NCBI RefSeq assembly: GCF_964213995.1
Contig: NC_135817.1
Span: 79,546,001-79,610,000 of the forward strand
Source: Mustelus asterias
Taxonomy: Eukaryota
Direction of reading: 5' to 3'
DNA length: 64,000 nucleotides
Both the position numbers and the translations under genes were made by a program. This document shows, in pieces, positions 1,293 through 61,290 of this stretch (positions are counted from its first letter, which is position 1; each line of letters opens with the position of its first letter). The notes under the pieces are model-generated. The model had not been told where the DNA came from. It was given only the letters and a program-made list of their open reading frames with translations, and ran no database searches.

Positions 1293-1516
1293 TAGTAAGA
1301 AGTCTCACAACACCAGGTTAAAGTCCAACAGGTTTAATTGGTAGCAAAAGCCACTAGCTTTCGGAGCGCTGCCCCTTCATCAGGCGAGTGGGAGTTCTAT
1401 TCACAAACAGGGCATATAAAGACACAAACTCAATTTACAAAATAATGGTTGGGATGCGAGTCTTTACAGGTAATCAAGCCTTAAAGGTACAGACAATGTG
1501 AGTGGAGAGAGCGTGA
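1293..1516 (-). mobile_element. Penelope-like element 3' fragment with intact minimal hammerhead
   Basis: Matches about 58836-59055 of the long PLE; 14-bp TSD ctacctattgattg at 1279-1292 and 1517-1530. Confidence 0.9.
1352..1386 (-). ncRNA. Minimal type I hammerhead ribozyme (PLE-borne), intact core
   Basis: Reverse complement: cgc-CUGAUGA-a-ggggc-agc-gcucc-GAAA-gc-UA-gug. Confidence 0.8.
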
Positions 1517-1578
1517 CTACCTATTGATTGGCCAGCCAGTGTGAAATCTCATTCAGGAACCGATTGCAGTGGAAGCAC

Positions 1579-1815
1579 TGTGGTAAACCACTGTTAAGCT
1601 TATTGCCTGTGTGTTTGTGACATGCCTGGGCATGCCCCTGCCGGCCCTGCCTGAGACTCCTCCCCGCCCCTGGTCCAGGTATAAAGGTGACTGCTCCCCA
1701 CCCCCCTGCCTCAGTCTCTGGACCAGTTCATCAGCATGGGTGTGCTCCAAGTCTTTTGCGAATAAAAGCCTATTTGTTCTTGCATACAAACTAGTCTTTG
1801 ATTGATAGTGCATCA
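1579..1815 (+). mobile_element. Solo LTR (237 bp)
   Basis: TG...CA ends, 5-bp TSD agcac (1574-1578, 1816-1820), TATAAA 1680-1685, AATAAA 1761-1766. Confidence 0.85.
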
Positions 1816-2610
1816 AGCACATTTTGCATCTCCTTCCAAGCCCACTGAGTGTGCACACCCAACAGGCGCAAAATTCAAGTCATGAATGATGAGCACACAA
1901 TTGAAGTGTAAAAAGGCACATAATACAAAGGGGCCTAAAGTTATTTGCAGATATATGTTATGTGCAGAATATATGCTGAATACATTTTTAAAAGTTAATA
2001 GAACACTAGGATGTTTATCTAGAACAATAGGACATAAATATACAGGAATTATGTTAATATTTTAAAATACAAGGATTTGAGCAAGTAGTATTTATTTTGG
2101 CAACCACATCACAATATGGTCTGTATGTTAGGTTACAGGGAAAGCAACAAGTACATGGTCAAGGAGAAGCAAGTATTATAAGGGGTAAATTGTAGGAACG
2201 GCAGGTGGCAACGAATTCCAGGCTATGTATGTGTCATAGCAGCAGTGCAACAAATCTTTACAACACAGTGAGGACACTGTGGAGGGATGGCGGGTGGGTG
2301 AATGCTTATGATATATTTGGAATGAGAAAGAACAAGAGGATATTTCACCAACAATAGCCATACTGATGGAACAAAGACAGTAAAAAATACATTGGAGAGG
2401 GAGACTGGAAATGAGACCAGGGCCAATAACCAAACTTTTTCTTGCATCTTGTCCAGGAAGATGAGGGATATAAGAGCCTCCCCAAGATCTTGTACCAATA
2501 ATAAAGTCTGGATGGAGTTAGGCTTTTACAGACTTGGTTCACTTAGCCTTTTTCAAATTCTTTCCTGGGACGCTTTGATTAAGAACTTCTTTTGTCATTT
2601 CTATCTTTAG

Positions 2611-57149: not shown

Positions 57150-58030
57150 AGATTCCAGCTTTTGACAATTCTAACTCCTCCCTGACCAAACTCCCACTTT
57201 TGACCCTCAGGGTCACCCAATCCCTGCTGCCGATGTCCTCACTCACACCAACGCCTGTTCAGCCATCATCTCTGTACTCGCTGAGCTGCACTGGTTTCCC
57301 AGTTAGTAACACCTCAGTTTTAACATTTCTGGTGTTCAAATCCCTTCATAGCCCTGCCACTCCCCCGCTGGAATTTTATCGCCTTGCCCGCCATGGCGAG
57401 GGGCAGACAACGGAAATGTCCATTGAACTCAGGTGGGAATTTACGGTCTCACTTGAGCGAGGCCATAAAATCCTGCCAACCTCTGTCACCTCCTCCAGCC
57501 CACAACCCTCCGTTATCTCCTCTCATTCTGCCTCTTGCGCATCCATGATTCTAATTCCTCCACCGTTGGTGCCAATGCCTTCAACTGCCTCGAACTGACT
57601 CTGGAATTCCCTCTTAAACCTCTCCGTCTCTTTGCCTCACTTTTCCTCCTTTTAGGATTACTTGGACCAAGCCTCTTTCATCTGTGCCAATGGCCGAAAC
57701 TTCTTGCGCTTTCCCACCGGTGAGATCTTATGGTTTCGCCGACTTGTCCCCCAACACCGTGCGTTTCCCGGCTGTGGAGGCTGCAAATAACGGGAAAACG
57801 CAGTGACATTGGCGGAACCGTGAGATACTGCTGCTGACCGATGGTGGGCCTCCCCCACCTCTGCGGACATGCCGTGGGTTGTGGGGGACCGGGGGCAGGG
57901 AGCAATCCTGCCCAATGTCTTTTTATGTGTCTCGGTGTCGTAGTGGTCTCATTTTCTAACACCTCTATAAAGTGCCTTGGGATGTTTATTTAATTAACGG
58001 TGCTATAGAAATACAGGTTGTTGTTGTTGA
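57150..58030 (+). mobile_element. Decayed L2-type LINE 3' fragment interrupted by two MITEs (57366-57477, about 57681-57913)
   Basis: ctgcactggtttcc...ttcaaatcccttcat remnant; tail gtgccttgggatg...gctatagaaatacagg(ttg)n. Confidence 0.65.
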
Positions 58031-58800
58031 TGAGTGTATATGGAGCTCCAACCCCTGTGGCATGTTTTGGTTCCACTGCCAGGCTGTGTGTTGAATTGAC
58101 TGCCGCTGTGCGATGCTGTGTGCCAACCTTTCAAGAACAGTGTGTGACTAGCATTATTTTATAGCCCTAGGCTTCTCACTGGGTGACAAATAATGTGCCC
58201 AGTGAGGCCTTGGTCAGAATCTTACTGCGGGACAGATCCTGTGCTGACTGCTTTATCTTTCACATCTGAGGGAGTCCGTGTGGTGTACGATTGCTTCCTG
58301 TCTGACACTTGCTTTATCTGAGCAAGAGAGAAGTAAAAAGTGTCAGCACAGCGATTAGTCAGAGCGCGCCCACCTCTCATTCACCAATTTCCAGATTTAA
58401 ACACTGGCGGCTGATGTTTCGAGACCACCTGTTCAAAGTGCCGACTTGCACACACAGCACACACAGCCTCAGAGAACTGACTGCCCCGGGGCTGGGACAC
58501 ATTTTCCTCCGAGTTACTCTCTCCCCCTGATGGCACCAGTACGTATGCATCAGCAAATAACTGCTGCCCCCCACCGCCCCATTCCCCCCTGTGGAATGAA
58601 AGTGATGGACACAAAATGGTAACCTGGGAAGGGACATTTAAAGACACTGGCTTTTGGCACAGACAGTTACACAAAAAGTTAAAACCTGCAGTATCCAATG
58701 CCGGCATCTCCACATCGTGTCTGAATTGCTGCAGGAAGCTGGTCAGAGCTTGAGGCACTTTAGATAAGAGCAGAACCAGAACAATGAGTCTGATAATAAG

Positions 58801-61290
58801 AGTGTGGAGATGCCGGTGTTGGACTGGGGTAAACACAGTAAGAAGTCGAACAACACCAGGTTAAAGTCCAACAGGTTTATTTGGTAGCAAAAGCCACTAG
58901 CTTTCGGAACAGGCTGTGCCTTCGTCAGGTGGGTGGGAGGTCTGATTACAAACAGGGCACAAAGACACAAACTCAATTTACATGAATAATGATTGGAATG
59001 TGAGTCTTTACAGCTAATCAAGTCTTAAAGGTACAGACAATGTGAGTGGAGGGAGCATTAAGCACAGGTTAAAGAGATGTGTATTGTCTCCAGACAGGAC
59101 AGCTGGTGAGATTTTGCATATCCAGACAGGTTGTGTGGGGTACAGATAGTGTGACATGAACCCAATATCCCGGTTGAGGCTGTCCTCATGTGTGCGGAAC
59201 CTGGCTATCAGTCTCTGCTCAGCGACTCTGTGCTGTCATGTGCCGTGAAGGCCACCTTGGAGAATGCTTACCCGAAGATCAGAGGCTGAATGCCTGTGAC
59301 CGCTGAAGTGCTCCCCAACAGGAAGAGAACAGTCTTGCCTTGTGATTGTCGAGCGGTGTTCATTCATCCGTTGTCGTAGCGTCTGCATGGTTTCCCCAAT
59401 GTACCATGCCTTGAGACATCCTTTCCTGCAGCATAACAGGTAGACAACGTTGGCCGAGTTGCAAGAGTATGTACCGTGTACCTGGTGGTGGTGTTCTCAC
59501 GTGAGATGATGGCATCCGTGTCGATGATCCGGCACGTCTTGCAGTGGTTGCTGTGGCAGGGTTGTGTGGTGCCGTGGTCACTGTTCTCCTGAAGGCTGGG
59601 TAGTTTGCTGCGGACAATGGTCTGTTTGAGGTTGTGCGGTTGTTTGAAAGCAAGAAGTGGGGTGTGGGGATGGCCTTGGCGAGATGTTCGTCTTCATCAA
59701 TGACATGTTGAAGGCTCCGGAGGAGATGTCGTAGCTTCTCCGCTCCGGGGAAGTACTGGACGACGAAGGGTACTCTGTCCACCGTGTCCCGTGTTTGTCT
59801 TCTGAGGAGGTCGGTGCAGTTTTGCGCTGTGGCGCGTCAGAACTGTCGATCGATGAGTTGAGCGCCATATCCTATTCTTATGAGGACATCTTTCAGCGTC
59901 TGGAGGTGTCTGTTGTGATCCTCCTCATCCGAGCAGATCCTGTGTATACGGAGGGCTTGTCCGTAGGGGATGGTTTCTTTAACATGTTTAGGGTGGAAGC
60001 TGGAGCTGTGGAGCATCGTGAGGTTATCCATGGGCTTGCGGTACAGTGAGGAGCTGAGGTGACCGTCCTTAATGGAGATGCGTGTGTCCAAGAATGCAAC
60101 CAATTCCGGAGAGTAGTCTATGGTGAGTCTGATGGTGGGATGGAACTTGTTGATGTCATCATATAGTTGTTTCAGTGATTGCTCACCATGAGGCCAAAGG
60201 AAGAAAATGTCATCGATGTATCTAGTGTATAGCATCGGTTGAAGGTCCTGTGTGGTGAAGAAGTCTTGTTCGAACCTGTGCATGAAGATGTTGGCATATT
60301 GCGGAGCGAATTTTGTCCCCATGGCTGTTCCGTGTGTCTGGATGAAGAACTGGTTGTTGAAGGTGAAGACATTGTGGCCCAGGATGAAGCGGATGAGTTG
60401 TAAAATTGCATCTGGAAACTGGCAGTTGTCGGCATTGAGTACTGAGGCAGTTGCAGCAATGCCATCATTGTGGGGGATGCTGGTGTAGAGTGCTGAGACA
60501 TCCATTGTGACGAGGAGTGCTCCTGGTTCAACTGCTCCATGTGTGCTGAGTTTCTGTAGGAAGTCCATAGTGTCGCGACAAAAGCTGGGGGTTCTTTGTA
60601 CAATGGGTTTCAGGATGCCCTCGACATAGCCGGAGAGGTTCTCGCACAGGTCCCATTGCCCGATACGATGGGACAGCCGGGTGTGTTGCCTTGTGTATCT
60701 TCGGGAGGCAGTAGAGATCTCCAACGCGGGGAGTACGTGGGATGAGAGCACGGAGGGTGTTCTGAAGGTCCGGATCAAAAGACTTGATCAGAGTGCTGAA
60801 TTGACGGGTGTGTTCTTTGGTCGGATCTGCGGGTAACTATCTTTAGTGTTCCTTGTTGTTCAGTTGTCGGTACACTTCTTTGCAGTAATCTGTTCTATTC
60901 AGTATGACGATGGCCCCTCCTTTGTCTGCTGGTTTGATGACAATGTTGCGGTTGGTCTTGAGAGCGTGGATGGCGTTGCGTTGTGCTTGGGTGATGTTCG
61001 GGGCTGTCTTGTGAGTGCGGCTGATGAATTTGGTGTTGATGCACCTCCTGATGGCTTGGGCATACATGTCAAGTCAAGGGCAGCGGCCTTCTGGAGGAGT
61101 CCAGTTCGACTCTTTCCTCTTCGGATGCACTGCGGATCTCTCTGTCGGTTGTTCCGGTTCATTGGCTGTCTCATTGTGTTCGCTGTTGGCCTCTTGGGGT
61201 TTGTGGAAGAACTCCCGCAGCCTCATTCGCCTGATGAATTCCTCTGTGTCTGCTGCGAGACTGATGGGGTCCATTTTGGCGGTGCAAAAA
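58801..61290 (-). mobile_element. Penelope-like retroelement (RT + GIY-YIG, Neptune-like), 5'-truncated and frameshifted
   Basis: RT motifs LVTMDVSALYTSIP, GTAMGTKFAPQYANIFM, YTRYIDDIF; PADKGG upstream; CxxxxCxxC linker; GIY-YIG NVVYLLCC..WYIGET...RMNEH; 12-bp TSD tctgataataag at 58789-58800 and 61291-61302. Confidence 0.95.
58894..58932 (-). ncRNA. Minimal type I hammerhead ribozyme in the PLE 3' terminal repeat
   Basis: Reverse complement: ccac-CUGACGA-a-ggcacagccuguucc-GAAA-gc-UA-gugg. Confidence 0.78.

Follow-up and report, generated by a model that had tools for sequence, protein, structure and literature searches.

Minimal hammerhead ribozyme motifs in the end repeat of a putative Neptune-type Penelope-like retrotransposon of the shark Mustelus asterias

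Motif copies, source element and host gene in the window

The stretch of DNA analysed here (the window) comprises 64,000 nucleotides of the Mustelus asterias genome (NCBI RefSeq assembly GCF_964213995.1, contig NC_135817.1, positions 79,546,001 to 79,610,000 of the forward strand) and contains eight copies of a repeat family that carries a minimal hammerhead ribozyme motif, a broken Penelope-like retrotransposon (PLE) from which the motifs appear to derive, and the last exons of an amyloid precursor protein (APP) gene. A preliminary description of this DNA had listed eight full motifs. Scanning the window with the conserved sequence on the 3' side of the motif as anchor locates exactly eight copies, all of one repeat family and all within one base of the listed places, but the complete core CUGAYGA...GAAA-GC-UH is retained in only four of them: 1352(-), 6751(-), 49791(+) and 58894(-). 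The copies are as follows.

1351..1387, minus strand: minimal hammerhead that retains its core and has a G-U pair in stem I; lies antisense within an APP intron
6654..6895, unstranded: two end-repeat arms inserted together in inverted arrangement, flanked by a 12-bp target-site duplication (6642-6653 and 6896-6907), with a tail on the minus arm only
6751..6787, minus strand: minimal hammerhead that retains its core, with CCAU/GUGG as stem I (a U-G intermediate); lies antisense within an APP intron
6801..6837, plus strand: decayed copy with G12A (AAAA, at a CpG), the 5' strand of stem I lost and a mismatch in stem II; sense in an APP intron
15169..15205, plus strand: decayed copy of an older subfamily with G12C (CAAA); sense in an APP intron
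35875..35911, minus strand: decayed copy with ACAA in place of GAAA; untailed arm of an inverted insertion
35940..35976, plus strand: decayed copy with G12A (AAAA, at a CpG); tailed arm of the inverted insertion shared with 35875..35911
49791..49829, plus strand: minimal hammerhead that retains its core, with CCAU/AUGG as stem I and U as cut base; predicted lowest-energy fold with both hammerhead stems
58894..58932, minus strand: minimal hammerhead that retains its core, with CCAC/GUGG as stem I and a single mismatch in the 6-bp stem II; in the element's 3' end repeat

Because 6751/6802 and 35876/35941 each belong to a single inverted insertion with a target-site duplication, the eight motifs represent six insertion events. 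The core pattern matches the window five times against 0.04 expected from 100 shuffles; four of these matches are copies of the family and one, at 11049, lies outside it. The cut base is A in five copies, C in two, U in one and never G, and this, like the stem I variants and the AGCU palindrome, agrees with the preliminary description.

The source of the motifs is represented by an element near the end of the window.

58801..61290, minus strand: 5'-truncated Penelope-like retrotransposon with stops and frameshifts, flanked by a 12-bp target-site duplication (58789-58800 and 61291-61302) and ending in a tail
59840..60787, minus strand: reverse transcriptase piece (YIDD; Pfam RVT_1, 3e-10)
59367..59693, minus strand: linker piece with a C-x4-C-x2-C motif (Neptune/Nematis type, as the motif is defined in PMC8557442)
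59239..59496, minus strand: GIY-YIG endonuclease piece (Pfam PF01541, 5.5e-05, above cut-off)

Frame-by-frame translation of 58801-61290(-) yields a DKG motif, YIDD, the C-x4-C-x2-C linker and GIY-YIG, interrupted by stops and frameshifts, and the 58894 motif sits in the 3' end repeat of this element, downstream of the reading frame for reverse transcriptase (RT), linker and GIY-YIG and in the same sense. These domains bear out both the Penelope-like origin that had been proposed for the motifs and the placement of the 58894 copy within the 3' end of an element with RT and GIY-YIG. Linkers of the C-x4-C-x2-C type mark Neptune or Nematis elements (PMC8557442), and on this motif the source is probably a Neptune-type PLE. 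One arm is tailed in 22 of 25 unselected inverted pairs and in 182 of 189 pairs over all loci. The tail ends at or just beyond an ATG (CATCATG; for example in loci L186 and L190 and at window 6654-6660(-)), which in a tandem would likely open the reading frame that follows. All copies carry an AATAAA about 15-20 nucleotides 3' of the cut (for example at window 6849-6855(+)), within the 29-nucleotide flank that is invariant between subfamilies; in sense intronic copies it could act as a premature poly(A) signal, perhaps outweighing the hammerhead in importance for host genes.

The host gene of the first four copies is APP.

2611..25192, plus strand: last exons of APP, recognized by GT..AG joints, translations and Pfam APP_E2, Beta-APP and APP_amyloid

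The APP exons end at 25192 and include the amyloid-beta region; their joints were read from spliced contigs of two sequencing runs, which are RNA by guess only. We infer an exon upstream of the 1352 copy from the loose end of a contig at 2611, which resembles the end of a Kunitz-domain exon, itself outside the window. The other four copies lie beyond the gene, past 25 kb, and the 130 open frames gave matches to APP only. Of the intronic copies, 1352 and 6751 are intact but antisense to APP, whereas 6802 and 15170 are sense but have lost G12; none is predicted to cut the APP pre-mRNA. Thus the presence of motifs in introns, as first described, is confirmed for these four, but none is both intact and sense to the host gene.

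Abundance, covariation and decay

The 3.68-Gb genome contains 144,637 exact matches to the 32-nucleotide end motif. Intact cores with a 13-nucleotide spacer number 55,144, and another 6,773 have a spacer of 14-21 nucleotides together with GUGG, compared with 0 for reversed controls; these patterns leave stem pairing unchecked and miss some subfamilies. A random sample of 100 evenly placed 10-kb stretches (1 Mb) contained 84 end motifs, 58 of them with a parsable motif; the core was intact in 43 of the 58 and accompanied by AGCU in 39 of the 43. This density of 39 to 43 intact cores per Mb extrapolates to approximately 140,000-160,000 genome-wide. The expectation that the genome holds many such motifs is therefore borne out by at least 55,144 intact cores, against approximately 4,000 minimal motifs in coelacanth and 9,000 in Xenopus in the counts given by PMC4209133, which were made with different descriptors. 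The abundance is unusually high for the described kind of element-borne hammerhead, and several subfamilies of 10^4-10^5 copies amount to a natural mutagenesis of the minimal hammerhead.

Covariation was assessed in 111 distinct, unselected, parsed copies from the window, the random stretches and bystanders in other loci, which form about five groups. The cut base is U in 48 copies, A in 38, C in 25 and G in none, and N7 varies freely. After exclusion of ten copies truncated in stem I, 101 remain for pair counts: pair I.1 is C-G in 72, U-A in 21 and U-G in 4, with 6751 among the wobble intermediates; pair II.4 is G-C in 81 and A-U in 14, with a G-U intermediate in three loci that were selected rather than random; and at pair II.6 one group has A-U, another U-A or U-G. 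Helix III is absent and replaced by the palindrome, in which 15.2/16.2 is G-C in 93 of the 101 copies and 15.1/16.1 is A-U in 97; the unpaired base between 9 and 10.1 is A in 99, and the pair G10.1-C11.1 is G-C in 90. The hammerhead rules allow variation at N7, at the cut base (not G), in loop II and in compensated stems. The variation observed falls at these places, which argues for selection in the source elements; the fold appears to have been kept by selection while those elements transposed. The stem covariation noticed at the outset is thus real and compensatory, but it lies between source subfamilies and does not reflect selection on dispersed copies.

Indeed, non-CpG core cells depart from the group majority in 13 of 909 cases (1.4%) and flank cells in 53 of 2,929 (1.8%; p=0.56), the mismatch limits used in parsing placing a mild ceiling on both figures. 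The anticipated excess of core conservation in a family-wide alignment did not materialize. G12 is the most-hit catalytic base, changed in 14 of 101 copies, and at one and the same CpG G12A is no rarer than C11.1U (13 versus 9 in the 101 copies; 22 versus 15 when 200 listed matches were counted by eye). Since core and flank decay alike and the disabling change is not depleted, individual copies decay neutrally and are not being kept active. Genome-wide, one subfamily has 2,604 C7U and 1,378 G8A changes, an excess that may be due to selection in the sources or to CpG context; we do not take it to prove selection, given that this CpG has different neighbours on its two strands and that deamination rates depend on sequence context.

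Copies that start at the predicted cut

In the subfamily that has AAGCUU and a bulge in stem I, 1,148 copies start at +1, the first base after the predicted cut, compared with 363 at -1 and 343 at -2, as counted with patterns that required three mismatches directly upstream of the start; junction positions downstream of the cut cannot be counted separately because the subfamilies share that sequence. Among the junctions inspected (the first 70 at +1, 60 at -1 and 60 at -2), most are inverted, and 48 of the 70 at +1 end otherwise than in AAA. The partner arm, not being subject to selection by the pattern, reaches at least three bases upstream of the cut in 2 of 52 +1 junctions versus 17 of 84 controls (p=0.009). 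Its starts peak at +1 (17 of 136) and +7 (19 of 136), the rows being not fully independent, as some events appear in two sets as mirror images. The combination of +1 and +7 makes a perfect hairpin with a loop of 5-6 bases, as expected from a complementary DNA (cDNA) that ran off at +1 and then primed itself. The longer arm is tailed in 15 of 20 +1 junctions versus 4 of 19 controls, in a split made post hoc.

Both arms begin exactly at the predicted cut in the inverted insertions L357, L363, L367 and L174 and in the pairs L330/L331 and L346/L347, the arms lying 0-1 bases apart or having 81-99 bases of foreign sequence between them. Three head-to-tail units of 111 bp (L265-L267) each run from the predicted cut to after the tail, without the core. 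Another preferred start lies at the 5' edge of stem I, 4-10 nucleotides upstream of C3, where 22 of 65 parsed unselected copies from the window and loci L031-L130 begin; it is possibly a transcription start or a strong stop.

Interpretation and relation to known elements

Minimal hammerhead ribozymes (min-HHR) were described by Cervera and De la Pena in 2014 in the pseudo-long terminal repeats of animal PLEs, including Xena, Poseidon and Neptune elements of fish (PMC4209133). As far as that account details them, they share with the present family a type I core, a palindromic 15.2-16.2 in place of helix III, a bulged base before stem II, G10.1-C11.1 and a short helix I, as well as the occurrence of several covarying families per genome, mostly as single dispersed copies, with closely spaced pairs lying on opposite strands. 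Stem II measures 5-6 bp here versus 7-8 bp in Schistosoma. The core, palindrome, bulged base, G10.1-C11.1 pair, covarying families and position in a PLE end repeat in reading-frame sense are all found here. The family thus has every defining sequence feature of the kind described in 2014 (PMC4209133), at a larger copy number, and as a family of ribozyme motifs it is ordinary, with no sign that its copies act on host genes. The helix III with a loop and the loop 1-loop 2 contacts of a canonical type I hammerhead do not apply, helix III being absent.

The Neptune/Nematis elements characterized by Craig et al. (2021, PMC8557442) share, in the features set out there, the RT, a CX2-5CxxC linker, a C-terminal GIY-YIG, 5' truncation, an inverted truncated copy and a tail of 30-40 bp at one end; the window element differs in being broken and 5'-truncated, and its clade is provisionally assigned by the linker motif. 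The Poseidon element PAc of Anolis (Frangieh et al. 2024, PMC11167929), of a different clade by linker motif, likewise has a hammerhead near the start of the reading frame and a tail defined by two ends. Its start codon lies inside the motif, whereas the ATG at the tail end would be the likely start here, judging from the copies; and that report, in the results we draw on, describes no reads at the cut, whereas some genomic copies start there in M. asterias. Animal non-LTR (long terminal repeat) retrozymes, hammerhead-bearing non-autonomous PLE derivatives that are reported in one chondrichthyan (bioRxiv 10.64898/2026.07.22.740005), are characterized in the portion of the preprint that concerns us as head-to-tail tandem arrays, unlike the single or inverted end fragments of the window, among which no two head-to-tail units with complete motifs occur. 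A literature search returned no paper on this family in sharks or on cut-site junctions, though the supplements of PMC4209133 and of the 2026 preprint may list shark motifs.

We consider it probable (roughly 0.8) that the motifs are minimal type I hammerheads of the end repeat of a Neptune-type PLE, scattered as short, mostly inverted insertions and likely to cut only the element's own RNA, and that weakly. Cleavage would fall after UH, slightly upstream of the likely start codon, and the AGCU or AAGCUU palindrome could form helix III between two molecules; the weak cutting would be helped by a second motif or by the element's protein, and dispersed single copies would be likely inert passengers. 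This is consistent with published results, where reported, for other minimal motifs, whose monomers do not cut and whose dimers cut weakly (PMC4209133), and for the anole element, whose motif cuts only with the element's protein (PMC11167929). The suggestion that the motifs act as dimers through a palindromic stem III holds as far as the palindrome is concerned. The paired window copies, however, lie on opposite strands, so that one transcript holds one active-sense motif and no tandem dimer. Dimer folding with ViennaRNA, which pairs the stems instead of the palindrome, speaks neither for nor against the proposal.

Several observations weigh against this interpretation. An Rfam scan gave no hammerhead match at E values up to 1, and only one of the four intact window copies (49791) has both hammerhead stems in its predicted lowest-energy fold. 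Changes on both sides of a pair arose independently only a few times (once each at I.1 and II.4) and were inherited among the 101 copies, so that the shuffle p-values overstate the covariation; and the downstream flank of 29 nucleotides is as invariant between subfamilies as the core, so that invariance of the core is by itself not special. Against cleavage as the cause of the junctions, the tail is on the longer arm in 20 of all 44 asymmetric cases (20 versus 24), and 22 of the 70 at +1 have a terminal AAA, so that the partner arm may have supplied the G. The AAGCUU palindrome ends exactly at the cut, which is also where RT would be expected to stall on approaching an RNA duplex. In a second subfamily no excess is seen at the cut (100 copies at +1 versus 105 at -1). 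The test is insensitive there: A, the most frequent filler, directly precedes the cut, and the simplest snap-back products match neither pattern. Inspection by eye of 100 pooled core-less copies showed no clear peak at the cut, which does not decide the matter, as the pattern excludes A-rich junctions. In the experiments of PMC11167929 considered here, the anole element inserted in vitro without need of its hammerhead, and none of the reads had an end at the cut.

A rival reading is a fold kept in the sources for a non-catalytic role, such as protein binding, RT pausing or RNA dimerization, the copies that start at the cut then marking a stall or joining hot spot at AAGCUU. The subfamily with the excess is the one whose 6-nucleotide palindrome ends at the cut, the subfamily with a 4-nucleotide palindrome lacks it, and the AAA-ended junctions can be accommodated. 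We nevertheless regard such a role as unlikely, because a cut base that is A, C or U but never G, together with a free N7, is the pattern of a catalytic constraint, and the majority of +1 junctions (48 of 70) lack a terminal AAA. The anole motif provides a point on either side in the data cited from PMC11167929: catalytic mutants had no effect on insertion in vitro, but the motif cuts, with rescue between C3 and G8.

RT stalling explains the +1 excess about as well as cleavage does, and the odds are about even that a few percent of one subfamily's copies were reverse-transcribed from RNA with its 5' end at the cut. The fuller proposal, that thousands of copies record cleavage in the germ line, with RT acting on cut RNA, running off at the cut and snapping back through a loop of 5-6 bases to prime the second strand and give inverted arms, is tentative, and we lean slightly away from it. 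If true, it would supply in vivo evidence for the ribozyme's activity and a mechanism for the inverted insertions of Penelope elements. A 2020 review (PMC7761336) described the cellular activity of these ribozymes as a mystery; given junctions that begin at the cut, the question of in vivo cleavage becomes testable from genome sequence alone.

It is improbable that dispersed intact motifs are active in host transcripts, cutting or regulating pre-mRNAs. At 39 to 43 intact cores per Mb many will be intronic, as are the four copies in APP, among which the sense copies are broken and the antisense ones intact, an outcome predicted if harmful copies are purged (n=4, anecdotal); but there is no excess core conservation, G12A is not rarer than the milder C11.1U at the same CpG, and monomers do not cut in vitro in the assays of PMC4209133 referred to above. 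That the motif is a chance or vestigial sequence carried in the repeat would accord with neutral decay and the lack of an Rfam match but is very improbable, as the compensatory changes between subfamilies, with their wobble intermediates, largely refute it and the motif occurs at the same position in other Penelope-like elements, among those treated in PMC4209133.

Approximately 42% of the window matches repeats in other loci. Several decayed RT fragments of long interspersed nuclear elements, which we take to be CR1-like, lie at 33485-35815 and 41086-44550, the latter with an RVT_1 match (5.1e-14) at 41698-42249.

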